From IMG/VR virus record IMGVR_UViG_2925891887_000001: 64,000 nucleotides of DNA; one strand, 5' to 3'. The notes beneath the pieces are model-generated. The model worked only from the letters and a program-made list of their open reading frames with translations, had not been told where the DNA came from and searched no databases. Shown in pieces: positions 581 through 22,186 of this stretch (positions are counted from its first letter, which is position 1; each line of letters starts with the position of its first letter). The position numbers were made by a program, and so were the translations under genes. Origin of the DNA: a virus (Duplodnaviria; Heunggongvirae; Uroviricota; Caudoviricetes).

Positions 581-1413
581 TGGCGCAGATCGACTCGTAT
601 CGTAGCGGTGAAGCTGTTTCCCTTTCATTTGCCTTCAACGTGCTGGATATCGAATCTGCTACCTACACAGTAAAGGACAGCACCGGGGCTATTCTCGTTG
701 ATGGCGAGCCGCTAGAAATTACCAGCGGTCAAATGTCGATTCCGGTTGTCGTGTCGGCTGAATATAACCAGCTCTCTGAGAAAGAGCGAGATCTGCGGTA
801 CGTCATTGTGAAGGCTGTTGCATCGGGTCTGACGCATGAAGAGCGGCAAATGTATGTTCTGCTGAATAGTTTTGAACTGTCGATACCAGAACAGTCGTTT
901 GCAACTGTCGCTGATGCTCAAATGCAGGCGATCGATATGCTGAATGGGGACACTTTGCTGTCGGATGGTGAAGGCTTAATGCGCAAGCGTCTCATTGAGG
1001 CTACCAGACGAATTAAAACTTTACCGTTCTCAATCCGCAAAATTCTACGTATCGACTTTGACCGATACGATCGCCCTCAAAATATGCTGAATGTGTATGA
1101 CATTCCGTGGGGAGCAGATGGAGCGTACCGGCATGATTTAGTCGATTGGGAAAAGATGACGCAGGAGAAGTTTGAAGAGTTCCCTGACTACTTCAAAGAA
1201 GCGTTGATGCTTGCCGTTGTCAACGAAGCGTGTGAGATCGCAAATGGCAATGATGTAGCCGCAGCACGAGAGGATGGCATTTTGTCAGAGTCCATCGGTG
1301 AAACAACCAACATGTACCGTACCGGTAAAGCTGCAAACGTGCATGTGGCTCGTAGTACCTGGCGCTTGCTGGTCAGTTACATCAACAACCGTATGATTGT
1401 TCGCCGTGCGTAA
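580..1413 (+). CDS. hypothetical phage structural/morphogenesis protein
   Basis: 277-aa ORF, start overlaps upstream stop (TAATG), same strand as the morphogenesis operon. Confidence 0.6.
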   Translation: MAQIDSYRSGEAVSLSFAFNVLDIESATYTVKDSTGAILVDGEPLEITSGQMSIPVVVSAEYNQLSEKERDLRYVIVKAVASGLTHEERQMYVLLNSFELSIPEQSFATVADAQMQAIDMLNGDTLLSDGEGLMRKRLIEATRRIKTLPFSIRKILRIDFDRYDRPQNMLNVYDIPWGADGAYRHDLVDWEKMTQEKFEEFPDYFKEALMLAVVNEACEIANGNDVAAAREDGILSESIGETTNMYRTGKAANVHVARSTWRLLVSYINNRMIVRRA

Positions 1414-1492
1414 CGCCAGTCGCATTATTTACTTTTGGTCGAAAGGGTTTTTGGCCAGTAATGAGAGCGACCGACAACAACAGGGAGAGAGC

Positions 1493-1837
1493 ATGAATAT
1501 TTCATGGCAAACAGAAATTGCGATCTACCGCTTTGGCGCAAAGAACGTTTACGGTGAGGCGCAATTACAATTCGTCAGGAAGACGAATGTCGGCGTGGTT
1601 AAGTTCGAACAGAGTAATGAGAAATCGTCAGTTCGTGCTGATAGCTCTGGTAGTCGTGGTAAGGCGAGTCTGGAGCTGTTTGATGCTGTGTTAGTAGTCC
1701 CTTTAGAAGCGGCTGTACAACTTGATGATGTACTGATCCTTGAAGGTCAAAAATTAAAGGTGTCCAGTGTTCATCGCCGCTGGGGGCTACGAGGAAGACC
1801 TGGGCATCTTGAAGTAGGGGCGAATATATGGGTCTGA
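1493..1837 (+). CDS. hypothetical protein (head-tail joining region)
   Basis: Internal ATG (MNISWQTE) preceded by AGGGAGAG; the longer 1397 start would overlap the upstream gene. Confidence 0.5.
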   Translation: MNISWQTEIAIYRFGAKNVYGEAQLQFVRKTNVGVVKFEQSNEKSSVRADSSGSRGKASLELFDAVLVVPLEAAVQLDDVLILEGQKLKVSSVHRRWGLRGRPGHLEVGANIWV

Positions 1838-2301
1838 AATACGATGCGCATCAGTTCAAACGTGCGGGGAATAGACTCAACAACAGCCAGAAAGCATTTA
1901 AGCGATATCTTATTCGGGACATGGAAAAGCTGGCGCGTTTGGTTGAGCGCCTCAGCCGTGCAATGGCCCCGCTGGAAACCGGATCTCTGGAGACAGCCAT
2001 CTTTGCCAGGGTGATTAAAGAAGGTTATTCAGGGCTGCGCATTGAGCTTTCTGTGTCTGGAGCAAAACCACGTCAGGGGCATCCGGGCGTAGAAGTCGGT
2101 GACTATGCTAAGTACATGGAGCTGGGTAAATACCGACTCGGTTATCTTTCTCGAATGAAGAACGTGACAAACCCACCAATTGCCGGTGTTAAACCCCGTG
2201 TTGGGCCACACTTTCTGGAAAGAGCGGTGGAAATTAGCGAGAAGCAGTTCTCAGAAGCGATTCTTGAGGCTGCCAGAAAAGCCGGATTTACGAGAGGTTA
2301 A
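1828..2301 (+). CDS. hypothetical head-tail connector/tail completion candidate
   Basis: 157-aa ORF tightly packed in the operon upstream of the major tail gene. Confidence 0.55.
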   Translation: MGLKYDAHQFKRAGNRLNNSQKAFKRYLIRDMEKLARLVERLSRAMAPLETGSLETAIFARVIKEGYSGLRIELSVSGAKPRQGHPGVEVGDYAKYMELGKYRLGYLSRMKNVTNPPIAGVKPRVGPHFLERAVEISEKQFSEAILEAARKAGFTRG

Positions 2302-2302
2302 T

Positions 2303-2686
2303 GTGTTTATTGAAGCGTTTGCAAGTTTGATGCAGAAGGCAAAGATTGGCACGGTCGGGACTGACATTTTCTGTCACTACTTGCCTGCCAATGTGAAATC
2401 TGGCGTCCTGCTTATTAACCCAAATACCGGTATCAGCATCGATCATGAGCTACAGGGCTTTTACCACGAATCATTCACAATAATTGTGCGTGGTTCGTCA
2501 ATTACTACGACGGTTGAGAAAGCCAATAAAATCATTGAGATGTTTCCAGTAGAGGAAACGGAATCTGGTGGTGTTTATTTTCGACTGGTACGACCGATGG
2601 CGATGCCAATCATTTATCCCAAAAATGATGGGGCATTAATAGAAGCAGGCATTCCTATTGAATTTGCTGGCTATTTATTGAATTAA
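2303..2686 (+). CDS. hypothetical tail completion/terminator candidate
   Basis: ORF immediately upstream of the major tail gene; start uncertain (GTG 2303 after GAGAGG, or ATG 2330). Confidence 0.45.
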   Translation: MFIEAFASLMQKAKIGTVGTDIFCHYLPANVKSGVLLINPNTGISIDHELQGFYHESFTIIVRGSSITTTVEKANKIIEMFPVEETESGGVYFRLVRPMAMPIIYPKNDGALIEAGIPIEFAGYLLN

Positions 2687-2760
2687 CTCAATTGGTAAGT
2701 ATATACTTACTATTAGCGCAATGAATGCGTAGAATTAACGGAAAAAGGAGTTTTCCATCA

Positions 2761-3507
2761 ATGTCTAATACCCATGTAAAAAACATCAAACTTGGTGCCT
2801 GTAAGGTGTCGTTTGGTGGTGTGGATTTGGGTTACACCAAAGGTGGTGTTCAGGTTGAAATCGCAACCGAAACGCTGAAAGTGACCGTAGACCAGCTGGG
2901 CCAGACCACGATCTCCGAGCTGATCCAGGGCCGCAACATCACCATTACTGCGCCGCTGGCTGAATCCGTGTTGAAAAACATGGTCGATCTGATGCCAGGT
3001 TCCACGCTGAGTTCTGGCGAAGATACCGTAACCATCACGTCTGCGCAGGGAGTGAACCTGATCGACGTTGCGAAAGAGTTGGTGCTGACCCCGCAGGATG
3101 CGACGGATTATGTTCTGACCATCCCTAAAGCAGCAACCGCGGGTAACTTCACCATGACCTACCAGTCTGACGACGTTCGCGTGTTCTCAGTTGAGTTTTC
3201 CGCTTACCCGGACGACGCTGGCGTGTTGGGGAAAATGAGCCTCCCAAAGCCGGTTGAGAGCGTCACGCTGACCCCGTCTTCACCGACCGTAAAAGTGGGC
3301 ACTAAAGTTCAATTGAGCGCAACCTTCACCCCGGCCGATGCAACCAATAAGACTGGCGTGTGGAGCTCTGATGCGACTGATAAAGCGACCGTAGATCAGA
3401 ACGGACTGGTAACTGGTAAAGCTGTCGGTTCAGCCAATATCACCTTCACAACTAATGACGGTGCCAAGAAGGCGACCAAAGCCGTCTCTGTAACTGCCGC
3501 AAGCTAA
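2761..3507 (+). CDS. major tail protein with C-terminal Ig-like (Big_2-type) domain
   Basis: ATG after AAAGGAG; lies directly upstream of the chaperone/tape-measure genes (lambda gpV position); Ig-like C-terminal segment. Confidence 0.7.
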   Translation: MSNTHVKNIKLGACKVSFGGVDLGYTKGGVQVEIATETLKVTVDQLGQTTISELIQGRNITITAPLAESVLKNMVDLMPGSTLSSGEDTVTITSAQGVNLIDVAKELVLTPQDATDYVLTIPKAATAGNFTMTYQSDDVRVFSVEFSAYPDDAGVLGKMSLPKPVESVTLTPSSPTVKVGTKVQLSATFTPADATNKTGVWSSDATDKATVDQNGLVTGKAVGSANITFTTNDGAKKATKAVSVTAAS

Positions 3508-3569
3508 ATTGTGATAACCCAAGAGGCCCATGGATGGGCCTCTGTATGAGTTTAAAAGGATTTTAACCA

Positions 3570-3887
3570 ATGACCAAATTACTCGATCTCGATTCCATTC
3601 TGCCTCCGAAGAAAAGCATCAAATTTGGCGGTCAGGAATATCCCATCGTTGAAATGACGGTAGGTCTGTTCGTTTCCATCAAGCAGATGGAAGGCAAAGA
3701 TCTCATGAACATGTCTCCTGTTGAGCAAGTGACAGCTTATGCAGATCTGGTTCGTAAGGTTATCCCTTCAGTACCTGACGAAGTTCTTGAAAAACTGACT
3801 GTTCCGCAACTCCAGCAGATCTTCACCTTCGCTATGGAAGTGATTGATGAAGAAAACGAAAAAGCGGCTGGCGAAGGGGCAAAGTAA
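3570..3887 (+). CDS. tail assembly chaperone (gpG-like)
   Basis: 105-aa acidic protein between major tail and tape measure genes; AAGGA RBS. Confidence 0.65.
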   Translation: MTKLLDLDSILPPKKSIKFGGQEYPIVEMTVGLFVSIKQMEGKDLMNMSPVEQVTAYADLVRKVIPSVPDEVLEKLTVPQLQQIFTFAMEVIDEENEKAAGEGAK

Positions 3888-4237
3888 TTTCCCGCGATGA
3901 ATCCGGGACAAGGACCGTCTCAATAGATCTCGGATTCTATTTCAGTCGTGTAGTTGCTCACTACGCCGTGTCGCCATTAGAGCTACTGAACGTTCCTCTC
4001 ACGATGTTCTGGATGCTCAGTCGCAATATAGACCGTCTGCGTGCGGAAGAGGATGTCCGCAACTTACAAGTCGCTCGTGCGTCCCAGGCGGATGGCGAGG
4101 CTGTGAAGGCGTTCATGGAGGGTTTGCAACTCAGGATTGGAAGACCAGTCGTAACAGATAAAGTCTACGATCCAAGCCAGGATAAGGCAGACCCTGACGC
4201 CAAAGAGCAACTGATGCAAATATTTGGCAGAGGATGA
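3570..4237 (+). CDS. tail assembly chaperone frameshift product (gpGT-like), candidate -1 programmed frameshift near 3858-3863
   Basis: The -1 frame is open from 3851 (after TGA 3848-3850) to 4237 and overlaps the last 34 nt of the gpG-like gene; the A-run GAAAAAG at 3858-3864 allows a -1 slip on AAA. Confidence 0.45.
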
Positions 4238-4244
4238 CAAGGGA

Positions 4245-7200
4245 ATGTCACAAAACGTAGAGTTTATCCTGTCGCTGGAAGACAAACAGTTTACAGCGTC
4301 AATCGATCGTGCGGGGAAACTGCTTACTCGATTTGGTGAGCAGGTAACAAAGCCTGCTCAAAAAATCCAAACCTTTGAACGCTCTTTGGGTTCGGTCGCC
4401 CGTATCATTGGCGTTCTGGAAAGCAAGCTCGATTCTACGGCAGATAAACTACAGGATGTAGCTGCCGGTTTTGAGCTTGCTTCAGATGCTACGCGTAAAA
4501 TGCGTGGCAACATCACCAGCCTCAATTCTGGTCTTAAAGCCCTGATTGAGCGCGTCGATACGACAACTTCTTCAGTAGATAAACTCACCGCGTCATTACG
4601 TAAAGTGCAATCAGAGCTAAATGATTTCTCTGATTGGGCGACCTATGCAAGCAAAAGCGCAAGCCGCTTTGGTACGGAGGTCAAAGAAGCCTCTGCGTCC
4701 GTGAGTGGCATGAATACGCGCCTTAATACCACGACGAAGCGACTCAGTAATTGGGGTGTCTCAACGAGTCAGGCTGCCGAGGGACTGAAAAAGGTTCGTG
4801 AGCAGATGGACGAAGTTATCGGACGTCAGCAACTGATTAGCAAGCCGGTACGCGTTCGTACATCTGGAGGTAGCGATGGTGGCAGCGGGCGGCGTAGCGG
4901 CTCTGGCCATAGCGGTAAAAGTAACGAAGGAGGTATGTTCTCTGGCCTTCGTGGCAACATTTTCCTGCTTGGCGAGATCGGAGATGCAGCCAGAACGGTT
5001 ACTGACATCATGTTTGGGTGGCAGAAGCCTATTGTTGAAGCTGCGGCCGAAATGGAACGTATGCGGGTGATGCTTCGAGGGTTGAATAAGGAGAAGTCCA
5101 ACCCGGGCCAGGCTGCCGCTGATGATATGAAGTACATCGTAGACATGGCTCAAAATGCGCCGTTCGCGATGCAGGCGTTAACAGACTCCTTCGTGAAGTT
5201 TCGTTCTGCTGGCTTAGATCCAACCGATGGTTCTCTGAAGGCGCTGGTGGACTCCGTTGCTCGTTTTGGTGGTGATAGTGAGCTGTTGAAACGTGCGGCT
5301 GTGGCCGTTCAGCAGATGTCCGGTAAGGGCGTTGTGTCAATGGAAGAGCTACGTCAGCAATTAGGTGAAGCCGTTCCTAACGCGATGCAGGCAATGGCAG
5401 ACGCCGCAGGCATCACTATGGGGGAACTGACTAAAGCCGTTGCCAGCGGTACGGTTGAGGCAAAACAGGCGTTGTCTCTGATGTTTGTTGGTCTGCGTGC
5501 GGAGAATGAGAACGCAGCGAAAGACATGATGCAAACCTACACAGGTGCGCTGGCGCAACTTCAGACGTCATTCACGTTATTTGCTGATCGGGTTGGTCAG
5601 GCCGGATATCTGGATTCTCTATCGAAGGGGATGAAAGAACTGGCTTCAATCATGAATAGCGCCGAAGGGATTTCGTTTGCCAATTCTTTAGGTTCGGGGT
5701 TAACAACGGCAATCGATGGGTTGCGTCAGCTTGCTCAATGGTTAGCAAAGAACCAAGAGCTGGTAATTAATCTCGGTAAGGTCGTGGCCGCGATGGTTGC
5801 GTTCAAACTGATGCGAGCAGGGATCATGGGGGTAGTTGGCGCTGGGAGCCAGATGGTTAGCACCTTTGCCACGATGGCGACCGCCATACAGACTCCATTT
5901 AACCTCGGCGCTACAGCAGTAACTCGATTCAATCGTGCGGCACGTATGGGGCTGGCTCCGATCCCCTCTCTTATTTTCGCCATCCGTGGGGCGATTACGG
6001 GGCTTAAAGGCGCTTTTGCTGGATTAACGGCGTTCATTGCAGCAAACCCTATAGGGGCAGCATTTACAGTTGCCACAGTAGCTGTTGCTGGCCTAATCAC
6101 GTACATGACCATGCTCCGCAGCGAAACTTCAAAGGTCGTTGACGAGATTAGGAAAATACCAGAGGCGATGACGGCGGCCAAACGTGCACAGATGGCGGAG
6201 TATAAAGCGCGTCTTGAGCAACAAATCACGCAAAAGGAACAAGAGTTAAAATCTGGCGAAAAGGTGGTTTATGGGCCGGGTATGGCCGGAACTACAGTAA
6301 AGATTAATCAGGATGAACGTAAGCGTATAGAAAATGAGCTAAATGACCTTCGTGAGAAACGCGATAAAACTACTGGGGCAATTGAACGCGGAGACACTGC
6401 TGTAGCCAAACGTCTTGCAAAAGATGCGGCAGAATCACAGATAGAGAAAATACGGGAAGAGAATAGAGACTTTGCGGCAACATTCGCTAAAGCTCGTCAA
6501 GAGGCTCTGGATAAGATCCAGAAAATCAATGATGACGGTTCACTTTCAGATGACGAAAAGAACAAGCTATTGGCACCGTTACGTGAAACGGTAAACAAAA
6601 GCTATCTGGAGCCTGCGCAAAAACTGGTTGATTCACTTTCTTCTCGTAAGAATGCGACCGAGAAGCAAATTGCGACTCTTAATGATCAGCTTGAAAAAGC
6701 CAAAAAGGATGGAAATACCGAGCAGATCCAGAAACTGCAAGGCAGTATTCGTGGTTATCAGGAGCATTTGGAAGCCGTTGCTCAGGAGCTGACTCAGGCA
6801 GAGTTCGAGAGAGATAACGCGGCCAAAACTGGTAAGGGCGTAATGTCAAACCAGGGGACTGTTCTTGGGTTAGGTACAACTGATAAAGCTGCTCAGAAGG
6901 CGCTGGCGCAATATATGCGAAACCAGATGGATTCTGCGACTTATCAGCGTACTTTGCCTGACGGCACTCCGATGATGGACTTCGAAGGTAAGCCGATTAT
7001 TGGGCCTAAACAACTCAAGACGCAGCTTAATTTGCAGAAAGCATCCAGCGCCAGCTCTCTGGAGAAAATGAGCGATGAAGAGCGTGCCGCAGCCATTGCT
7101 GCACTGACTAAAGCTCGTGAACAGGATGCCGCAGCCGCCGAGAAAGCAGCCCAACGATCAGCTAACGCCTCGCAGCGTGCGGCCAAGAAGGAACAGGCAG

Positions 7201-12126: not shown

Positions 12127-12143
12127 ACAAGGATTTTTTGAAC

Positions 12144-15100
12144 ATGGAACAGTTCAAGAAGAAAAAGCTACCGCTGTTTATTGCCGGTGCGGGTGGTAAA
12201 AAAAGCAGCAAAAGCTCTAGTCGTACACCGGTTGAAGCCGACGATACCGTAAATTCTCGTGCAATGGCCGCTATCCTCGATCTTCTTGGGGAAGGGGTAA
12301 TTGGCGGCTTAGTAAATGGCGCAAGATCTATTTTTATCGACGATCTGCCGATTGTAAATGAAGACGGTTCCTCCAACTTCAGCGGAATCACATGGGATTT
12401 TCGCGACGGTTCACAAGACCAGACTCCAATGTCTGGCTTTGATTTCGTTGAAACGCCTAAATCCGTCAATATCCAGTTAAAAAAAACACATTATGTAACG
12501 GTTTCAATCGATAACGATGAAGCTGATCGGGTTCGTGTCATCATGAAGTTTCCTTCTTTGCGAAGCATAGATAAAAAAACTGGTGACACGAACGGTACGA
12601 CTGTTGAGTACAAGTTCCAGATAGCAAATGGCGACTCAACATTTGTAGATGTGGTCGCGGAAGGTGAAAAAAGCGTTGGCATTAAGCTAACAGCAAAGAA
12701 GACCGGCGTTTATTACCGTAGCTACGAGCTGAAGCTGCCTAAGCCTGGACGCGCATACAAGGTTCGTGTAGTCCGTATTACCGATGATAACAGTAGCCAG
12801 TATCTCTATAACGATACATGGGTGGATTCAATCGGGGAAATTGTCGATACACCGATGAACTATCCAAACTCTGTTTTGGTTGGATTGAAGGTAAACTCTG
12901 AGCAATTCGGCAGCACCATGCCATCTCGCTCTTATCTGGTGCGTGGCCTAAAAATTCGAGTACCTTCAAACTATAACGAGTCCAGTAACACTTACGCTGG
13001 GGTATGGGATGGCACTTTTAAGCTGTTGTCTTCTTCGAACCCCGCGTGGATTCTCTTTGATTTGCTGACCAATGCTCGATATGGCCTTGGTCAGTATGTG
13101 TCGGAATCTATGATTGACCTTGGCCAGTTGTACCAGATTGGTCGATATTGTGACGAAGAGGTCGATGATGGCTTTGGTGGCAAAGAGAAACGCTTTGCAA
13201 TCAATACGCAGATCACCAGTCGACAGGACGCATACCGGCTAATTCAGGATATTGCCGGAGCATTCCGCGGCATGGTGTTTTGGGCTGGTGGGATGGTTAA
13301 CATCATGCAGGATAGCCCATCAGATCCGGTAATGATGTTTACCAACTCTAACGTCAAAGATGGATTGTTTACCTATAAAGGTTCTGCGCGTAAAGATCGC
13401 CCATCCGTTGCGCTCGTAACCTACAACAACAAGGAGGACGGTTATAAGCAAAACATCGAGTACGTCGAAGATCAGGACGCAATGCGCCGTTATGGTGAGC
13501 GTAAAACAGAAGTCGTAGCATTTGGCTGTACAAGCCGAGGGCAGGCTCACCGAGTTGGTTTGTGGCTTTTATATACCGCCAGAATGGAGTCGGATGTAAT
13601 TACATTTACTGCCGGCTTAGACGCGTCATTTCTGATGCCTGGTGAAACCGTTCTGATTCAGAACAAATATCGCGCAGGCAAACGTAACTCAGGTCGAATT
13701 GTGGCGTTTACCAAAAACAGCGTCACACTCGATGCGCCTGTGTCGTTAGCCAAAGGCGGCTGCTTTATTCGAATACTGAATCAGGAAGGCAAAATCGTTG
13801 AACGCGATGTTCTTGAAACTGGCGAAAATATAACAAAAGTTACGTTTTCAAAAGCCCTGTCTTCGGCTGAAACGCCTGTTTTGAACGGCGTCTGGACTAT
13901 TACAGAACCAGACCTCGAACCTATGCGCGTTCGCATCGTTAACATCGCGCAGGGGGAAACGCCGGGTAGCTTTGACATCACCGCTGTTGAGAACAATCCG
14001 TCTAAATATGAGGCAATCGACAATGGTGCAACGCTGATCCCACAGAATACGACGGTATTGGACCCAACTTACTCCAAGCCATCTAATCTGCAAATCACTG
14101 AAGGGACTTATCTCTCAAGCCCGGGCAACCTGTCAGTAAAACTGACTGCAACATGGGAAGGGAAATCTCCAGAGTATTGGATCAGTTGGCGACGTTCTGA
14201 TGAAAACAATGTATCGAACTGGCAATCGGCGCGTGTAACCGAAGAGCAATACGAAATCGTTAATGTCGCGGAGAATGGACGCTACGACTTCCAGCTGTAT
14301 GCGGTTTCATTCAACGGTAAAAAAACAGAGATTATCAGTACCGTTTATCAGGTGTTGGGCACAATGACACCGCCGGATGCCCCAACGTCATTAACGGCCG
14401 TTGGAGACTATCGTAATGTGATACTGAATTGGGTTAATCCAGATTCGGTAGACCTTGATCACATTAATGTTTACGCATCCCAGACCAACAATCTGGATAC
14501 GGCGAAACTGATCGCAGAGTCTGCAAGCACCACCTTTACACATGCTGGTCTTGGGGATAGCGAAACGTGGTATTACTGGGTTCGAGCATCGAACAAGCGA
14601 GGTATGTTAAGTCCTCCGAACTCAAACTTGGGTACAGAGGCGACAACTCGCGATGTACTGTCGTTCCTGACTGGCAAAATTACATCTTCCGAGCTTGGTC
14701 AGGCTCTGCTTGAGGACATCAACAGCAAAGCCTCTCAAGAAGCAGTTGACGAGTTAAATGAGCATATCAACCAGAGCGTCGAATCTTTGGAGGGGGCGGT
14801 AAACGACGTTAAGGAAGATATAGCTGAATTAGATAAGCAGTTCAGCGATAACCTCGCGGATTTTGAAATAAAATTCAACGAGCGTAGCGATGCTTTGGAG
14901 AACGCACAAACCGAGCTTAAAGGTGAGGTTTCGGCAACGATCGACAAGGTCAATGAAGCGTTTGAAAAAATTGATGCTACTGATGCTGCAATTGTTGAAA
15001 TCGAAAACACCGTATCTGAACACGATAAAGCTCTCGCTAATACAGTCGAGGCAATAAAGGCTGCAAGAGATGAAGCGGCGGCTCTTATTGCTAAGGAAAG

Positions 15101-16871
15101 CGAGGCTCGTGTTGAAGGCGATGCTGCAAACGCTAAACAACTGGAAGTGTTGCAGTCAACGGTAGAGGAAAGCTCCGCTGCCGTTGAAGAAATGAAAAAG
15201 ACGGTTGCAGAGGTCGATCGTGCCAGTGCAGAACTGACTACGAACATTGAAGCGTTAGCTAAAACAAATATTGACCTGGCTCTTCGTCAAGATGAAGACC
15301 AGCACAAGCAGATGGTCAATAACGCGAAGATCGCAACAACACAGAAAACCTTTGCTGATGATATGTCCGCAATGGCCACGAAGGTTGAGGAAATTCGCGT
15401 AGAAATTGGCGAAGACATTAAGGCCAGTATTCTGGAAGAGTCCACCGCTCGTGCCGATGGCGATGAAGCGTTGGCAAAGCGTGTCACTCAGCTGCAATCT
15501 AAGTTTGAAGGAGATATCAGCGCGGCGATTAGTACAGAGCAGGAGGCTCGTACATCTGCCGATGAAGCTCTGACGACACAAATCACTCAGCTTGAGTCGA
15601 AAGTAAGCAACGATATCGTCGCAGCTATTAAGGAAGAGCAAGAAGCCCGAGCAACGGAAGATTCGGCTCTGGCAAGCCAGATCACCCAACTTCAGGCAAA
15701 AGTTGATGATGATATTTCTGCTGCAATACGCAGTGAGCAGGAGGCCCGAGCAAGCGGGGACTCTGCGTTAGCCAAACAAATAAACCAGCTTCAGTCAAAG
15801 GTTGACGGTGATATATCCGCTGCCATCACTCAGGAGCAGGAGGCCAGAGCAAGTGCTGACCAGGCGCTCTCACGAGAAATTAACAGCCTGCGAGCACAAA
15901 CCGGAACTGATATTGCCGCAGCGGTTGCTGTAGAGACAAAAGCAAGGACTGATGCCGATAGTGCATTGTCTACCCAGATTACGTCTCTTACAGCAAAAGC
16001 TAATGATCTCAAGGCGTCTCTTGCCAGAGAAACAACGGCTCGTGCAGATGGTGATACCGCTTTAACAAAAGAGGTTTCAAGTTTAAAAGCACAGACAGCG
16101 AAAGATATTAGTGCGGCCGTTGCAGTTGAAACGCAGGCTCGAACTGATGCTGACTCGGCGTTGTCGTCTCAGATCACCAAGCTGACCTCTCAATACAAAG
16201 AGGATATTAAAGCGGCTGTAGCAACCGAAACGAAAACGCGTACAGAGCAAGATGCTGCATTGGCGACTCAAATCACAAACTTAGAGTCTCAAACGGCAGC
16301 CAACATTTCCGCGGCGGTCACAACTGAAACGAAAGCGAGAACGCAGGCAGATAATGCTCTGAGTGGGCGAATCGATACTCTGAAAGCAGAGGTGAATGGA
16401 AATACCGCGACAATTCAACAGCAGGCAACAGCTATTGCTGATACCAACAAAAAAGTGTCAACCGCGTGGACGTTGAAAATGGAGACTTCAACGAGCGGAG
16501 GGCAGAAGTATGTTGCCGGTATTGCGCTTGGTATTGACACCACTGGGCTATCTCAGTTTTTGGTTCAGGCGGACAGGTTTGGTTTGGTCAACTCTGTTAA
16601 CGGGAAGATCACAACGCCATTTGTTATCGAAAACAGTATCGCCTATATGAATGGAGCGTATATCAAGGATGGCACAATCACCAATGCAAAAGTAGGCGAT
16701 CTGCAATCTACCAATTTTGTTAGCGGTAGATCTGGATGGCGGTTCGGCAAAAATGGAACGCTTGAGATCAACGGTAATAGCGGCGGCAATGGGCGATTGG
16801 TTATAAATGGTCAGCGGATTGACGTTTATGACGATAACAACGTCCTACGAGTAAGAATTGGCCGTCTGTGA
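12144..16871 (+). CDS. tail tip/host specificity protein J-like with long coiled-coil repeat shaft
   Basis: about 1575 aa; N-terminal region with gpJ-like features, then about 12 in-frame 31-32 aa repeats, C-terminal distal domain. Confidence 0.8.
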   Translation: MEQFKKKKLPLFIAGAGGKKSSKSSSRTPVEADDTVNSRAMAAILDLLGEGVIGGLVNGARSIFIDDLPIVNEDGSSNFSGITWDFRDGSQDQTPMSGFDFVETPKSVNIQLKKTHYVTVSIDNDEADRVRVIMKFPSLRSIDKKTGDTNGTTVEYKFQIANGDSTFVDVVAEGEKSVGIKLTAKKTGVYYRSYELKLPKPGRAYKVRVVRITDDNSSQYLYNDTWVDSIGEIVDTPMNYPNSVLVGLKVNSEQFGSTMPSRSYLVRGLKIRVPSNYNESSNTYAGVWDGTFKLLSSSNPAWILFDLLTNARYGLGQYVSESMIDLGQLYQIGRYCDEEVDDGFGGKEKRFAINTQITSRQDAYRLIQDIAGAFRGMVFWAGGMVNIMQDSPSDPVMMFTNSNVKDGLFTYKGSARKDRPSVALVTYNNKEDGYKQNIEYVEDQDAMRRYGERKTEVVAFGCTSRGQAHRVGLWLLYTARMESDVITFTAGLDASFLMPGETVLIQNKYRAGKRNSGRIVAFTKNSVTLDAPVSLAKGGCFIRILNQEGKIVERDVLETGENITKVTFSKALSSAETPVLNGVWTITEPDLEPMRVRIVNIAQGETPGSFDITAVENNPSKYEAIDNGATLIPQNTTVLDPTYSKPSNLQITEGTYLSSPGNLSVKLTATWEGKSPEYWISWRRSDENNVSNWQSARVTEEQYEIVNVAENGRYDFQLYAVSFNGKKTEIISTVYQVLGTMTPPDAPTSLTAVGDYRNVILNWVNPDSVDLDHINVYASQTNNLDTAKLIAESASTTFTHAGLGDSETWYYWVRASNKRGMLSPPNSNLGTEATTRDVLSFLTGKITSSELGQALLEDINSKASQEAVDELNEHINQSVESLEGAVNDVKEDIAELDKQFSDNLADFEIKFNERSDALENAQTELKGEVSATIDKVNEAFEKIDATDAAIVEIENTVSEHDKALANTVEAIKAARDEAAALIAKESEARVEGDAANAKQLEVLQSTVEESSAAVEEMKKTVAEVDRASAELTTNIEALAKTNIDLALRQDEDQHKQMVNNAKIATTQKTFADDMSAMATKVEEIRVEIGEDIKASILEESTARADGDEALAKRVTQLQSKFEGDISAAISTEQEARTSADEALTTQITQLESKVSNDIVAAIKEEQEARATEDSALASQITQLQAKVDDDISAAIRSEQEARASGDSALAKQINQLQSKVDGDISAAITQEQEARASADQALSREINSLRAQTGTDIAAAVAVETKARTDADSALSTQITSLTAKANDLKASLARETTARADGDTALTKEVSSLKAQTAKDISAAVAVETQARTDADSALSSQITKLTSQYKEDIKAAVATETKTRTEQDAALATQITNLESQTAANISAAVTTETKARTQADNALSGRIDTLKAEVNGNTATIQQQATAIADTNKKVSTAWTLKMETSTSGGQKYVAGIALGIDTTGLSQFLVQADRFGLVNSVNGKITTPFVIENSIAYMNGAYIKDGTITNAKVGDLQSTNFVSGRSGWRFGKNGTLEINGNSGGNGRLVINGQRIDVYDDNNVLRVRIGRL
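15440..16390 (+). repeat. in-frame tandem repeat region (about 12 x 31-32 aa units, EQEAR..D.AL..QI.QL.SKV..DISAAI) within the J-like gene
   Basis: Periodic repeat visible in the translation; nucleotide copies are diverged. Confidence 0.6.
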
Positions 16872-16964: not shown

Positions 16965-19900
16965 ATGTGGTACAGGGAAGGTACTATCACATTTACACAG
17001 GGCAGCAATACTCTGGTTGGGGCAGGGACAGCCTGGAACGTAACAGCTAATGGTGTGTTGCCGGGGATGATCGTCATTGGCCCCGACAATAAGCTGTATG
17101 AGATCAAGCGCGTAACCAGTGATACGAACATTGTTCTCTCAGAACCTTATACCGGCGAAACTCAGTCTGAAGTTCCGTGCCGAATCATTACGACCTATGA
17201 AGGCGACTTAACACAGTTTAGCGCGCGCTTTACTGCGCTAATGTCGCGTATGTCGGCTGATTCCAAGTCCATACGCAGTTGGTTGACTGCGCTGGATGAG
17301 GTGACAATCGAGCGTGAAGACGGTACAGAAGTGACCGTTAAGCCGCTAATGCAGATCGTCAACGAGCACAACGAAAACGTTGAGTGGTATAAAAATAACA
17401 CTGACGCGATTGATGCTGCTGGCGACAAAGCTCGTGAGGCGGCGGCCAGTGCTGCCGCAGCAGCAAAAAGCGCCAATGCCGCTGGAGAAAAAGCCTCTCA
17501 AGCGTCTCAAAGTGCATCCGCTGCGGCATCCTCACAAAGTGCCGCAAGTGCGAGTGCAACTGCTGCGAAAAAATCTGAAACGAATGCTGCAGCGTCACAA
17601 AAATCTGCAGCCACTTCTGCATCCACCGCGACCACGAAGGCGTCAGAAGCTGCCACCTCAGCCCGGGATGCGGCGGCCTCAAAAGAGGCAGCGAAATCAT
17701 CAGAAACGAGCGCAGCCTCGAGCGCCAGTAATGCCGCTTCCTCGGCAACGGCGGCAGGAAATTCCGCGAAGGCGGCAAAAACGTCCGAGACGAACGCCAG
17801 GTCTTCTGAAACGGCAGCGGGACAGAGCGCCTCGGCTGCGGCAGGCTCAAAAACAGCGGCTGCGTCGTCTGCCAGTGCCGCGTCAACAAGTGCCGGGCAG
17901 GCCTCAGCCAGTGCCACCGCCGCCGGAAAATCGGCAGAAAGTGCCGCATCGTCTGCTTCAACTGCCACAACGAAGGCTGGCCAAGCCACTGAACAGGCCA
18001 GCGCAGCAGCGAGGTCTGCTTCCGCAGCGAAGACATCCGAAACGAACGCGAAAGCGTCGGAAACCCGTGCAGAATCCTCAAAAACGGCAGCCGCATCGTC
18101 CGCCAGTTCGGCGGCGTCATCGGCATCATCGGCGTCTGCTTCAAAAGATGAGGCGACCAGACAGGCGTCAGCAGCGAAGGGCAGCGCCACGACGGCATCC
18201 ACGAAAGCAACAGAGGCGGCAGGCAGTGCGACGGCAGCATCTCAGAGCAAAACTGCTGCTGAATCCGCTGCGACCCGTGCGGAAGCTGCTGCTGATCGTG
18301 CTGAAGAGATTGCCGGTGCAGTTGCGATGGAAGACGCAAGCCTTACAACTAAAGGTGTTGTGAAACTTAGCAGTGCTGTCGACAGCACCAGTGAATCGCT
18401 GGCCGCAACGCCAAAAGCAGTTAAAGCAGCCAATGACAATGCGAATAGCAGGGTGCCATCTAACCGAAAAGTTAACGGTAAAGCACTGACTGCGGATATC
18501 AAATTAACGCCGAAAGATATTGGTACTTTAAATTCAGTAACGATGTCTTTCTCTGGCGGGGCAGGGTGGTTCAAACTGGCTACGGTTACCATGCCACAAG
18601 CGAGTTCCATCGTTTACATCGCATTGATTGGTGGCGCTGGTTACAACGTCGGCTCCCCACATCAGGCAGGCATTTCAGAACTGGTTCTACGAGCAGGCAA
18701 TGGAAACCCCAAAGGGATTACAGGTGCTTTGTGGAAGCGTACAGCTGTCGGATTAACGAATTTCGCCTGGATCAACACATCCGGCGATACATATGATATT
18801 TACGTTGAGATTGGCAATTATGCGACTCGTGTAAATATCCATTGGGATTGTACTGCAAATGCGACAGTTTCTATTTATACCTCGCCAACATATTCAGCGA
18901 GTAAGCCTTCCAGCGTTACCGATGGTGTTGTTTATACGATGTATAGCACACATCAGAAACCGACGCCGTTAGATATTGGAGCACTGCCAACAACCGGAGG
19001 AACAGTTTCAGGTCCGTTGTCTGTTACAGGTGGATTAACTGGTTCATTGAATGGTAATGCAAGTACAGCCACGAAATTGCAGACGGCAAGATCTATCGGT
19101 GGAGTTGTTTTCGACGGTTCTGCAAATATTAACCTTCCAGGTGTAAACACTACGGGTAATCAGAACACCACTGGTAATGCTGCAACTGCTACAAAACTTC
19201 AGACTGCAAGAAAAATATCCGGTGTTCCATTTGATGGTTCTACTGATATCACTTTAACCGCTGCGCATGTTGCCGCTTTCGCAAGAAGGGCAACAGGGTC
19301 ATATGCGGATGCTGATGGTGGCGTGCCGTGGAATGCTGAATCTGGTGCTTACAATGTAACTAGAACAGGCGACACCTATATTCTTGCCAACTTTTATACC
19401 GGTGTAGGTAGTTGCCGGACCCTGCAGATGAAGGCGCATTACAGAAATGGAGGTCTGTTCTACCGTTCCTCAAGAGATGGCTATGGTTTTGAAAGTGGTT
19501 GGGAGCAGGTTTACACGACTGGATTTATGCCTCAGCCGGCTGATATAAACGCGCCAACCGCTGCCGCTGGATGGTTAAATAGTGGTAACGGAACGGCATT
19601 TACGACTGCTCAATTTATAACTTGGCTAAATAATCAGGGGGCATTTACAAACAAACATTGGATCGCACGGTGCTCATGGACTTACGCCAACAATAATTAT
19701 ATAGACGACACTGGTTGCGGTAGGATCGATCTATCTGGTTCCGTGATTGAGGTGTTTAGTAATAAGGCAACAAGCCACTACACTATTCGTGTTACAACGA
19801 CAACAACATCGGGTCATGGTGGTGTTAACAATGCGGAATTTATTTATGTGTACAATGGAAGTGATTATGCACCAGGCTGGCGTCGTTCTTATAACACTAG

Positions 19901-21263
19901 AAACAAACCAACAGCTTCTGATGTAGGAGCATTACCGCTTTCAGGTGGCACATTATCTGGAGGGTTAACATCTTCTGGTGAGATCATTTCAAAATATGCA
20001 AATGGTTTCCGCATTGCTTACGGTAAGTTTGGGTTCTTTATCCGTAATGATGGGGTGAACACATATTTCCTGCTAACAGCATCAGGAGACACATTAGGTT
20101 CATGGAACGGTTTGCGACCTATTACAATTAATAATACCAGCGGTGCTGTATCAATTGGTAATGGACTAAATGTGACTGGTGGCGTAAATGGTAGTTTGAA
20201 CGGTAATGCTTCAACAGCTACGAAGTTGCAAACAGCGAGAAACATCAATGGTGTTAAGTTTGATGGTTCAGGCGATATCAATATTAATACATTGGTATCT
20301 CGTGGCCGAGTTACGGCGTTAAGCGGCTCTACTCAAGGCACTGCTGGCATTCAAATGTATGAGGCGTACAACAATAGCTACCCGACCACGTATGGCAACG
20401 TATTGCACATGAAAGGTGCGAGTGCTGCTGGTGAGGGCGAGTTGCTTATTGGCTGGAGTGGTACGAGCGGTGCACATGCGCCAGTTTTCATTCGCTCACG
20501 AAGAGATAACACAGGTGCAGCATGGTCAGCGTGGGCGCAGGTATATACCGCTAAGGATTCAATCCCTGGTGTGAATACAACTGGTAATCAGAACACTACT
20601 GGTAATGCCGCAACCGCCACAAAATTGCAGACAGCAAGGAAAATTGCTGGTGTGGCGTTTGATGGCTCTGCCGATATAACTTTGACTGCGGCTAACCTTA
20701 ATGCTTACACGAAAACAGAGGTAGCAAACCTTCTAAGTTCCTATGCAAGCAGATCATCACTGACAGGCTATAGTGGCAACCTGGATATTGTTGCTGAAAC
20801 ACTGGTTGTCAAATCAGGCGGTAGTGGAGGGTTTGCTATATGGGATATTGGCACAACTACTAGCGGTGCCAATATGTACATTGATCCAAACCCAGGTATC
20901 AATACAGTTTGGCGTTCAACGTCTTCAAGGCGCTATAAAAAGGATATTGAAACATTACAAGATCGATATGCTGATGAACTTTTGTCATTAAGACCTGTTT
21001 GGTATCGTTCAATTTGTCGAGGTGACCGAAAGGATTGGGGGTATTACGGCCTTATTGCTGAAGAGGTTGGTGAGATTGCCCCGCAATATGTCCATTGGCG
21101 TGAACCAACAAATAATGATTCTCCAGAAGATATTTCCTCAAATGGTATGGTCGCTGAAGGAGTGATGTATGAGCGTTTGGTTGTACCACTCATTTATCAT
21201 ATTCAGCAATTGACCAAAAGGGTTGAGGAGCTTGAAACGAAGTTAAATTCACCTAAAGAATAA
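16965..21263 (+). CDS. tail fibre protein with Ala/Ser-rich low-complexity region, four phage-fibre repeat modules and C-terminal S74-type intramolecular chaperone domain
   Basis: AAGGAG RBS; repeated ATKLQTAR.I.GV.FDGS.DI.L modules; C-terminal segment containing SRRYKKDIE typical of the auto-cleaving chaperone domain. Confidence 0.85.
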   Translation: MWYREGTITFTQGSNTLVGAGTAWNVTANGVLPGMIVIGPDNKLYEIKRVTSDTNIVLSEPYTGETQSEVPCRIITTYEGDLTQFSARFTALMSRMSADSKSIRSWLTALDEVTIEREDGTEVTVKPLMQIVNEHNENVEWYKNNTDAIDAAGDKAREAAASAAAAAKSANAAGEKASQASQSASAAASSQSAASASATAAKKSETNAAASQKSAATSASTATTKASEAATSARDAAASKEAAKSSETSAASSASNAASSATAAGNSAKAAKTSETNARSSETAAGQSASAAAGSKTAAASSASAASTSAGQASASATAAGKSAESAASSASTATTKAGQATEQASAAARSASAAKTSETNAKASETRAESSKTAAASSASSAASSASSASASKDEATRQASAAKGSATTASTKATEAAGSATAASQSKTAAESAATRAEAAADRAEEIAGAVAMEDASLTTKGVVKLSSAVDSTSESLAATPKAVKAANDNANSRVPSNRKVNGKALTADIKLTPKDIGTLNSVTMSFSGGAGWFKLATVTMPQASSIVYIALIGGAGYNVGSPHQAGISELVLRAGNGNPKGITGALWKRTAVGLTNFAWINTSGDTYDIYVEIGNYATRVNIHWDCTANATVSIYTSPTYSASKPSSVTDGVVYTMYSTHQKPTPLDIGALPTTGGTVSGPLSVTGGLTGSLNGNASTATKLQTARSIGGVVFDGSANINLPGVNTTGNQNTTGNAATATKLQTARKISGVPFDGSTDITLTAAHVAAFARRATGSYADADGGVPWNAESGAYNVTRTGDTYILANFYTGVGSCRTLQMKAHYRNGGLFYRSSRDGYGFESGWEQVYTTGFMPQPADINAPTAAAGWLNSGNGTAFTTAQFITWLNNQGAFTNKHWIARCSWTYANNNYIDDTGCGRIDLSGSVIEVFSNKATSHYTIRVTTTTTSGHGGVNNAEFIYVYNGSDYAPGWRRSYNTRNKPTASDVGALPLSGGTLSGGLTSSGEIISKYANGFRIAYGKFGFFIRNDGVNTYFLLTASGDTLGSWNGLRPITINNTSGAVSIGNGLNVTGGVNGSLNGNASTATKLQTARNINGVKFDGSGDININTLVSRGRVTALSGSTQGTAGIQMYEAYNNSYPTTYGNVLHMKGASAAGEGELLIGWSGTSGAHAPVFIRSRRDNTGAAWSAWAQVYTAKDSIPGVNTTGNQNTTGNAATATKLQTARKIAGVAFDGSADITLTAANLNAYTKTEVANLLSSYASRSSLTGYSGNLDIVAETLVVKSGGSGGFAIWDIGTTTSGANMYIDPNPGINTVWRSTSSRRYKKDIETLQDRYADELLSLRPVWYRSICRGDRKDWGYYGLIAEEVGEIAPQYVHWREPTNNDSPEDISSNGMVAEGVMYERLVVPLIYHIQQLTKRVEELETKLNSPKE

Positions 21264-21323: not shown

Positions 21324-21578
21324 ATGAGCTATGGTGCACAGGTTTGGTCGCCATCAAGACAGGAGATGGTCAATGCGTTGGCCCCTGTTTATTACCTCGA
21401 TTATTTTACTCCCTCTGGTTCAGGAAGTAGAACATATGAGGTTGAGGCGGGATTGGGAATCGACTATTACATAATGGACGTAACCAATGGAAAGTACACA
21501 AGTCTTACGGTTTCTGGAAATACCATTTCGTGGTCTGGAGCTAGTGGTAATTTAAACATATTGGTTTTTCAAAAATAA
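21324..21578 (+). CDS. hypothetical protein (tail fibre-associated)
   Basis: 84-aa ORF after the tail fibre gene; lower GC than flanking genes. Confidence 0.5.
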   Translation: MSYGAQVWSPSRQEMVNALAPVYYLDYFTPSGSGSRTYEVEAGLGIDYYIMDVTNGKYTSLTVSGNTISWSGASGNLNILVFQK

Positions 21579-22186
21579 TGTACGGAAGCAAGATATATCG
21601 ATCTGACGGGAAGGTCTGGATGTCTCCTTCTTTGTCTCCTATCGTTTTTCAGAGAAAGCAGGTTGTTTCTTTGTCCGGCGGGACAGAGTTTAACACCAAA
21701 ATATCTCCAGATCGTTCACCGATTATTTTTGTTGCCTATTCGAAAGCTGTTTCATTAATAGCCAACAGAATAGTGCGTAACAACCAGGTGATTTACAGTT
21801 TCGGAGGTCAGGGTAGCGACTCTAGTGCCACGATATACGTATTTTCGAAAGGTATAGCCAAAAAAGAAACTTGGGGCATGAGTTTTTTCAATGCACAAGG
21901 GGAGGAAATCTATAATACGGCAAATATCCCACTTTCATTTACCTTTCTTAATAATACGGAGTGGAACAGCTCTGGAGGGCATGTTTTTGATTACCCTCCA
22001 GCGATAATCCCAACATATGCGAATGTGTTCGCTGTTCCAGTACCGGGCGGAGCCATGACAATGGTTTATGGATATGCGGCATATGGAAATACTGTTAGCT
22101 CGATATTCGTAAACCAACTTAATGGCGGCCATAGTTTTAGCGTAAATGGCAGAGTACCGGTAATAAATAGAAATCTGTATAACTGA
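21578..22186 (+). CDS. hypothetical protein (tail fibre-associated)
   Basis: 202-aa ORF with start/stop overlap to the upstream gene. Confidence 0.5.
   Translation: MYGSKIYRSDGKVWMSPSLSPIVFQRKQVVSLSGGTEFNTKISPDRSPIIFVAYSKAVSLIANRIVRNNQVIYSFGGQGSDSSATIYVFSKGIAKKETWGMSFFNAQGEEIYNTANIPLSFTFLNNTEWNSSGGHVFDYPPAIIPTYANVFAVPVPGGAMTMVYGYAAYGNTVSSIFVNQLNGGHSFSVNGRVPVINRNLYN

Follow-up and report, generated by a model that had tools for sequence, protein, structure and literature searches.

Ten 33-residue repeats in the J-type central fibre of an SSU5-like phage-plasmid are related to the shaft of F-type pyocins

What powers the opening of non-contractile tails and the breaching of the outer membrane is the question addressed by a fold switch proposed in 2026 for F-type pyocins. 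Cryo-electron microscopy (cryo-EM) has resolved the shaft of the pyocin central fibre as a three-stranded coiled coil, with an acidic kink at G955 (D950–D961) that is the docking site of three side-fibre trimers (PMC13455828). Another study assigned residues 907–1084 to a trimeric coiled coil with core residues L1050 and I1054, described the shaft as mostly heptad-based and suggested that it is metastable (bioRxiv 10.64898/2026.02.24.707460). According to He et al. (PMC12874032, 2026 preprint), residues 921–1083 of the F7 pyocin change from a coiled coil into a beta-prism on cell contact, so that the tail tip opens and the tape-measure protein is ejected; Gln at the small residues A987 and A995 abolishes killing, with assembly unaffected. 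In the same work each strand contains a motif, SxSxxMxxLxS, that points the way the strand runs, acidic M positions are partnered by Arg at i±4 (E1039–R1043), three non-switching beta-prism strands directly after the helix act as a seed, and, of 24 siphophage central fibre proteins, AlphaFold-based methods predict the switch in 21. Here we describe a J-type central fibre gene whose product carries a tandem repeat related to this shaft, in a 64,000-nucleotide stretch of Caudoviricetes DNA (IMG/VR record IMGVR_UViG_2925891887_000001; the whole stretch is called the window below).

The window is 99% identical to Escherichia phage Cyrano, in whose annotation J is preceded by the tape measure gene and homologues of M, L, K and I, and followed by a side tail fibre, lysis genes, toxin–antitoxin genes and plasmid partition genes. 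This gene content around J identifies the window as an SSU5-like phage-plasmid, and the tape measure/M/L/K/I series precedes J likewise in SSU5 and plasmid relatives. The J gene is 99.2% identical in DNA to that for the Cyrano 'tail host specificity protein J' and 78–98% identical to the J genes of Escherichia phages CMS-2020a and PhiR41_1 and Salmonella phage SSU5. The C-terminal 538 amino acids (aa) of J recur at ≥99% identity in at least 123 plasmid records, and plasmid records matching J number 473 altogether; among the matching plasmids listed, the size is ~110 kb and the hosts are E. coli, E. fergusonii, E. albertii and Shigella. All aa numbers are counted from the TTG at 12138, which comes from a mechanical open reading frame (ORF) call and gives a protein of 1,577 aa. 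The Cyrano annotation starts two codons downstream, at ATG 12144 (MEQFKKKK).

12138–16871, + strand: J-like tip attachment / central tail fibre gene (ORF list, identity to Cyrano, Pfam and PDB matches)
aa 104–238 of J: FNIII-A_GpJ (Pfam)
aa 360–523 of J: Phage-tail_3 (Pfam)
aa 747–826 of J: fn3 (Pfam)
aa 1425–1559 of J: Phage_Tail_Tip (PF09327, formerly DUF1983; Pfam, E = 1.3e-41)

Judged by its sequence, the product belongs to the lambda-J-type tip attachment / central fibre proteins: the hub and FNIII domains (Pfam Phage-tail_3 / FNIII-A_GpJ and FNIII, E = 1e-35, 1.5e-29 and 2e-5), the gene position and PF09327 are all present. An initial annotation, made from the DNA letters and their ORFs, had already read it as a J-like tail tip protein, and both the Pfam domains and the position after the M, L, K and I homologues agree. 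A sequence search of PDB entries matched aa 20–860 to the F2-pyocin tail fibre (E = 5e-153) and to lambda gpJ (E = 2e-124).

Ten contiguous repeat units (aa 1101–1429, nucleotides 15438–16424), nine of 33 aa and one of 32 aa, lie in J after the FNIII domains and ahead of the C-terminal tip domain PF09327, with boundaries set by anchoring on E-x-x-[AT]-R. Autocorrelation of the protein (BLOSUM and identity, aa 1051–1460) gave sharp peaks at lags 33, 66 and 99, with lags 31, 32 and 34 at background. Identity at lag 33 reached 48% within aa 1101–1429, against at most 17% at unrelated lags and at most 18% in 1,000 composition-preserving shuffles; the initial annotation had named periodicity no greater than composition would give as the result that would count against a repeat. 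A hidden Markov model (HMM) built from the ten units recovers each of them with an independent E of 1e-16 to 1e-21. The in-frame, protein-level tandem repeat recognized at the outset is therefore a strong one, and its consensus as first written (EQEAR-S-D-AL--QI-QL-SKV--DISAAI) agrees with that of the units. The original count of twelve repeats of 31–32 aa gives way to ten of 33 aa on both the autocorrelation and the profile, and of the original limits, 15440–16390, the start holds to within 2 nucleotides and the end falls 34 nucleotides short.

15438–15536, + strand: repeat unit 1 (aa 1101–1133)
15537–15635, + strand: repeat unit 2 (aa 1134–1166)
15636–15734, + strand: repeat unit 3 (aa 1167–1199)
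15735–15833, + strand: repeat unit 4 (aa 1200–1232)
15834–15932, + strand: repeat unit 5 (aa 1233–1265)
15933–16028, + strand: repeat unit 6 (aa 1266–1297), the sole 32-aa unit
16029–16127, + strand: repeat unit 7 (aa 1298–1330)
16128–16226, + strand: repeat unit 8 (aa 1331–1363), aligned by HMMER with A985/A987/T990/L993/A995 of the F2/F7 pyocin
16227–16325, + strand: repeat unit 9 (aa 1364–1396)
16326–16424, + strand: repeat unit 10 (aa 1397–1429), a transition unit that merges into the C-terminal domain and aligns with E1039...I1054 of the F2 pyocin

Unit positions E1, R5, D9, A11, L12 and L19 are invariant across the ten units, and A4 and A29 nearly so. Mean identity among units is 47% in protein and 51% in DNA. 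Tandem Repeats Finder detected no 99-nucleotide array at the DNA level, and a DNA repeat search returned only partial families, 60–73% identical, at 99-nucleotide spacing; the repeat is therefore visible at the protein level alone. At lag 99, third codon positions agree in 35.5% of cases (background, 27%) and are thus nearly randomized, which makes the duplications old. In a comparison of the window with CMS-2020a (SCU-175), positional orthologues are 69% identical and paralogous units 43%, which rules out recent duplication or concerted evolution and marks the array as old and not being homogenized. Nucleotide-level divergence and old duplication had both been proposed in the initial annotation, and these measurements bear them out. 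ORFs on the opposite strand over the array (for example, 15255–15689) were rejected as artefacts of biased composition. The unit HMM also found two degenerate copies upstream, the second of which has a forward switch motif at aa 1078 and a reversed one at aa 1096:

15096–15185, + strand: degenerate upstream unit copy (aa 987–1016, ESEARVEGDAANAKQLEVLQSTVEESSAAV; independent E = 2e-5)
15363–15431, + strand: partial degenerate unit directly before the array (aa 1076–1098, MSAMATKVEEIRVEIGEDIKASI; HMM positions 9–31, independent E = 0.004)

The array is homologous to the pyocin shaft. With the C-terminal part of J as query, phmmer aligned aa 1277–1549 with residues 927–1193 of the F2-pyocin tail fibre (25vf_A; E = 1.5e-23). 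The F2 fragment in this alignment carries the published residues at their published numbers (A987, A995, A998, A1011, E1039, R1043, L1050, I1054 and G955), and pyocin numbering is therefore transferable. In the HMMER alignment, F2 A985/A987/T990/L993/A995 fall on positions 11/13/16/19/21 of unit 8, and F2 E1039/R1043/L1050/I1054 on positions 1/5/12/16 of unit 10. Several other J-like proteins in the PDB also matched, among them a 'putative tail fiber protein' (9l9p_S) with a 33-aa repeat like that in J (ALSREIDQLKAQIGDDIQASLTDIREVIATETE); the Avs-1 paper, considered as a possible source of entry 9l9p, proved unrelated.

The published switch motif recurs in register with the unit. A forward SxSxxMxxLxS motif starts at unit position 11 in all ten units (A11, a small residue at 13, I/V16, L19, S/A21), and a reversed motif, starting at position 29, continues into the following unit at 10 of 10 junctions (A29, I/V31, E1', A4', A/T6'). 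Over the array there are 15 full forward and 10 full reversed matches, compared with 2.3 ± 1.4 of each in 2,000 shuffles (maximum 8); the total of 25 stands against some 4.5 expected. The invariant E1 and R5 reproduce the pairing of an acidic M position with Arg at i+4 and are the residues aligned with F2 E1039 and R1043. Two motif copies of opposite direction, ~16.5 residues apart in every unit, fit an antiparallel beta-hairpin, so one unit would correspond either to three hendecads of helix or to one beta-hairpin. Read in the same way, the published pyocin fold-switch region is itself a cryptic tandem repeat, a point absent from the main text of He et al., where neither 'repeat' nor 'SSU5' occurs. 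Along residues 985–1092 of pyocin 25vf_A, motif starts lie 32–33 aa apart (forward at 985, 1017, 1049 and 1082; reversed at 1034 and 1066).

As a whole, the F-type pyocin central fibre (PA0641/PyoF10; PDB 25vf, 25vj and 26ci; F7) shares with the window J the order of a J-type hub, FNIII, a long alpha-helical shaft and a small beta tip, direct sequence homology through shaft and tip, and the motif with its Glu–Arg pair. Both proteins end right after the tip domain, J without any additional receptor-binding extension, and the neighbouring side fibres have similar N-termini. The pyocin switch region comprises 163 residues of degenerate repeats, whereas the window array has 329 residues in ten well-preserved units, with ~230 helical residues upstream. 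In pyocins, separate adhesins (PyoF11/12, or PA0642) lie directly downstream, whereas the window has no such small genes between J and the side fibre; and the pyocin is a tailocin, the window an infectious phage-plasmid. Lambda gpJ (PDB 8iyk, 8xcj and 8xci) has the homologous hub, PF09327 and the M-L-K-I-J gene order in common with the window, but it lacks a coiled-coil shaft between FNIII and PF09327, has a LamB-binding C-terminal domain after PF09327 and, according to He et al. (PMC12874032), undergoes no extensive fold switch.

The repeat region is best read, on structure prediction, as an alpha-helical coiled-coil shaft. AlphaFold2 (AF2) modelling of a monomer of aa 830–1577, from a 23-sequence alignment, placed helices at aa 867–1055 and 1065–1412 and beta structure after them. 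A second monomer model, of aa 1233–1577 (18 sequences), gave an unbroken helix over aa 1234–1410 with a predicted local distance difference test (pLDDT) score of ~90. Within unit 10, the predicted helix extends to about aa 1410–1412, and beta strands begin at aa 1414. The initial annotation had called the region a coiled-coil-like shaft, which fits both the model and the homology to the cryo-EM-resolved pyocin shaft; the beta-helix it had listed as an alternative is not the predicted ground state. Foldseek searches with the AF2 model, against a PDB library without F-pyocin entries, gave matches confined to the C-terminal beta part, the long helix being uninformative. There the tip domain matched the tail tip fibre of phage SU10 (7z4b_EA) and the lambda gpJ central fibre (8xcj/8xci), with E = 2e-7 to 4e-6.

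14736–15302, + strand: proximal helical shaft segment (aa 867–1055; AF2 model residues 38–226), hydrophobic period ~3.56
15282–15329, + strand: predicted shaft break with acidic patch (aa 1049–1064, LRQDEDQHKQMVNNAK; AF2, conservation)
16425–16868, + strand: C-terminal beta-rich tip domain (aa 1430–1577; Pfam Phage_Tail_Tip, E = 1e-41)

Fourier analysis of hydrophobicity gave a period of 3.66 residues for the array (= 33/9), with a strong harmonic at 16.5 residues that arises because each 33-residue unit holds two opposed motif copies, and no power near 2.0–2.4 residues. Canonical heptads do not fit aa 1101–1429 (power of 3.6 at 3.5 residues against 90 at 3.66). Coiled coils with a period of 11/3 = 3.67 are by definition hendecad, and run nearly straight or with a slight right-handed twist (PMC4786415); the closeness of the two periods makes one 33-aa unit equal to three hendecads. 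A nearly straight or slightly right-handed bundle would be expected here, as in the hendecad trimeric coiled coils of adhesin stalks and phage needles, which share the 3.67 period but show no sequence relationship to the array that we found. The proximal segment has no regular repeat; scattered motif matches start there at aa 923, 950, 965, 982 and 997.

Copy number, counted with one unit profile throughout, varies among related J proteins:

Window, Cyrano and CMS-2020a (SCU-175): 10 units
PhiR41_1: 9 units
Y. pestis pMT1 (locus L013, CDS 1324–5919): 6 units
SSU5, an E. cloacae plasmid, a Cronobacter plasmid and two E. coli plasmids: 5 units each
A Salmonella plasmid and a Buttiauxella plasmid: 4 units each
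A Citrobacter plasmid: 3 units
A Klebsiella phage, with a different distal half: 0 units

The differences among SSU5-like J proteins are whole units without exception. PhiR41_1 differs from CMS-2020a by a single clean in-register deletion of 33 aa, and the 164-aa gap between SSU5 and the window equals five units. The comparison of repeat number among relatives that the initial annotation had put forward accordingly yields steps of whole units (3, 4, 5, 6, 9 and 10). On either side of the array the protein is conserved: the hub (first 850 aa) is 85–99% identical in the five relatives measured, and the tip (last 148 aa) is 93–100% identical among Cyrano, CMS-2020a, PhiR41_1 and SSU5. The J proteins of other SSU5-like phage-plasmids (SSU5, pHCM2-type Salmonella plasmids, Y. 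pestis pMT1, Enterobacter, Citrobacter and Cronobacter) have the same architecture with the 33-aa unit in the same position, but with 3–6 units as against 10 in the window. Those of pMT1, Salmonella pN16S089-2, Buttiauxella and E. coli RHB41 carry an extra 127–168 aa after the tip domain, and in Klebsiella members the entire distal half of J is replaced.

Beyond these elements, a search of 1.84 billion representative proteins with the unit profile yielded 1,267 proteins (E ≤ 1e-3), in which as many as 26 stretches were matched. Among the top 136 proteins, units are most often spaced by 32 aa and next by 36, 39 and 33, and those with a J hub have 4–21 units. The matched proteins have up to ~24 units each. 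Many of them have no J hub, and a T7-tail-fibre N-terminal domain is present in some homologues of the C-terminal 488 aa of J. This is a widespread repeat family with no Pfam family over it, and ten units are not exceptional. Between aa 830 and 1425 of J, Pfam gave no match even at permissive thresholds (E up to 10), and no curated family for the 33-aa unit rose above its gathering threshold; sub-threshold hits on the shaft to SF-assemblin (20.8 bits against a cut-off of 30.6) and Baculo_PEP_C were dismissed as generic coiled-coil noise. PHROGs offered generic 'tail fiber' families only, and a literature search for a described tail-fibre repeat of 32/33 residues found nothing.

We favour the reading that the ten units make up the distal portion of a long shaft of trimeric coiled coil, probably metastable, that switches to a beta-prism, and we place its probability at roughly 0.55; both the trimeric state and the switch we infer for this phage by homology with the F-type pyocin. 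Such a shaft would hold the central fibre's small beta-rich tip domain at a distance from the tail-tip hub. As coiled coil, a unit would make nine helical turns and span ~4.9 nm (0.148 nm per residue, canonical geometry), the array ~49 nm and the whole predicted helical region (aa 867–1412) ~80 nm. Once the tip touched the cell surface, the coiled coil would turn into a triangular beta-prism, in which each unit would be one beta-hairpin with two strands of about 16.5 residues and would take up ~1 nm; the fibre would shorten by ~4 nm per unit, roughly 39 nm for ten units, and the energy set free would serve to open the tip of the tail and drive out the tape-measure protein. In-register recombination that adds or removes whole units would change the length of the shaft, with the hub untouched and, in several lineages, the tip untouched; if the switch is real, it would also alter the stroke. 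A further proposal, that the unit is the quantum of a mechanical device, with a fixed folding energy and ~4 nm of contraction each, and that unit number tunes reach and stroke to the thickness of the host surface layer, is a tentative one that we regard as doubtful.

Several points weigh against a switch in this phage. The fold switch comes from one preprint, on a pyocin, and lambda and T5 do not use it according to the same preprint (PMC12874032). A switching segment of 329 residues would be twice as long as the 163 residues observed, and the F2 shaft is mainly heptad-based whereas the array is hendecad-like, with its period of 3.66. AF2, run on monomers, yields the helical state alone, and the strands that it places after the helix (aa 1414–1419, 1422–1434 and 1440–1451) are of low confidence, with pLDDT of 41–58. 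Broad residue classes (small, aliphatic, charged) define the motif, and Ala, Ser and Thr abound in the region, a bias in composition for which the shuffles control. The similarity of the side-fibre N-termini, taken up below, is weak.

The array could instead be built of stable trimeric coiled coil that never switches, sets the distance between tip and hub, possibly bears the side fibres and, through unit number, tunes reach through surface polysaccharide. We consider this credible, if less likely. The high-confidence, exclusively helical AF2 prediction speaks for it, as do the variation of copy number in whole units while the tip stays constant, the example of lambda and T5, and the presence of the repeat family in numerous tail fibres that are not J proteins (several of these begin with a T7-tail-fibre N-terminus), for which a tip-opening switch has no obvious role. 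Against it stands the pattern of conservation. The most conserved unit positions include the small residues A4, A11 and A29 and positions 13 and 21; their F7 equivalents are solvent-exposed in the coiled coil, and burial at the beta-prism's corners explains their conservation (PMC12874032). The homology moreover reaches the exact residues whose mutation abolishes pyocin killing. The shaft is probably more than a passive spacer, and the selection for length proposed in the initial annotation is one possible reading of the repeat; selection may act on the dual-fold capacity of the shaft. The link that the initial annotation drew between copy number and O-antigen is speculation.

That the region is already beta-structured in the mature virion, as a beta-prism or a triple beta-helix like the lambda gpJ central fibre, with the helix an artefact of modelling monomers, is improbable. 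AlphaFold 3 predicts a beta-prism for 30% of homologous phage regions (He et al., PMC12874032), the 16.5-residue half-period fits a hairpin, and the adjoining downstream domain is beta and resembles the lambda central fibre; but three independent cryo-EM studies show the pyocin homologue as coiled coil before ejection, the amphipathic period of 3.66 is helical with no power near 2.0–2.4, and the AF2 helix has a pLDDT of ~90. More improbable still is an interrupted alpha/beta coiled coil with beta-layers at x-D-x-D-I, or a ladder on which an accessory protein docks at every unit. There is a loose resemblance between the conserved K-V-D-G-D-I-S segment and beta-layer motifs in the stalks of trimeric adhesins and in phage fibres. 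Beta-layers in coiled coils are a general phenomenon (covered in PMC4786415), and F-pyocin side fibres do dock on the shaft. They dock, however, at one acidic kink and not at every repeat, and the beta-layer version was set aside on two grounds: AF2 predicts no break inside the array, and 33 residues make three hendecads (3 × 11) without insertion. Compositional bias is real in this region, but the idea that the periodicity is a by-product of Ala/Glu/Thr-rich composition has next to no probability, being refuted by the shuffles, the per-unit E values and the unit-wise indels in relatives.

Outside the array, the break between the two predicted helices has its own likeness to the pyocin. In the AF2 model it is non-helical with pLDDT <50 (model residues 222–238, aa 1051–1067), and it coincides with an acidic patch, RQDEDQH (aa 1050–1056), conserved in SSU5 and CMS-2020a. 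We regard aa 1049–1064 as a candidate hinge or side-fibre docking site. The gene immediately downstream of J encodes the side tail fibre:

16965–21263, + strand: side tail fibre gene, 1,432 aa, immediately downstream of J (Pfam Gp34_trimer, Peptidase_S74)

In a phmmer search of the PDB, its N-terminus (aa 2–109, nucleotides 16968–17291) matched residues 3–106 of the F2-pyocin side fibre 25ve_A (E = 3e-4), and F-pyocin side fibres attach to the central-fibre shaft through their N-terminus (PMC13455828; bioRxiv 10.64898/2026.02.24.707460). This suggests, as a hypothesis only, that the side fibres of SSU5-like phages may have the acidic break of the J shaft, and not the distal tail protein, as their attachment site.

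Farther along the side fibre, aa 141–470 (17385–18374) form a 330-aa stretch rich in Ala, Ser and Thr (124 Ala, 73 Ser) with a clear 7-residue periodicity (identity peaks at lags 7, 21, 28, 35, 49, 70 and 77); this is probably a heptad coiled coil rich in alanine. Several long spurious ORFs, in further frames and on the other strand, result from its biased composition, for example 17359–18339 on the − strand and 17380–18363 on the + strand. The side fibre has 1,432 aa in the window and 1,341 aa in Cyrano, and a 202-aa ORF without a Pfam match (21578–22186) lies between the side fibre and the presumed holin, where the Cyrano annotation has no gene; from these two differences, the distal fibre region may be a swapped module.

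A fibre shaft built of repeats is unsurprising in a phage tail protein, and the novelty here is modest: the tandem-unit reading of the motif and a natural series of copy numbers. On our analysis the array appears to be a genuine, modular, length-variable shaft, and would be a longer and cleaner repeat-built member of the known fold-switching central-fibre shafts, with the switch carried over by homology. The locus presents the switch motif as a clean tandem repeat, with what would be one hairpin or three hendecads in every 33 residues. The element is common, occurring in E. coli, E. fergusonii and Shigella plasmids, and Y. pestis pMT1 and Salmonella pHCM2-type plasmids are among its relatives. 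Where the hub is the same, relatives differ by whole units, several of them sharing the tip, and their 3-4-5-6-9-10 series makes a natural test set for relating shaft length or stroke to adsorption and entry. If the unit were the mechanical quantum of the more doubtful proposal above, a phage with a non-contractile tail would have a contractile central fibre, whose stroke would evolve by the gain and loss of units across a range of 3 to 10 in SSU5-like phage-plasmids and up to about 20 in other J-like proteins.

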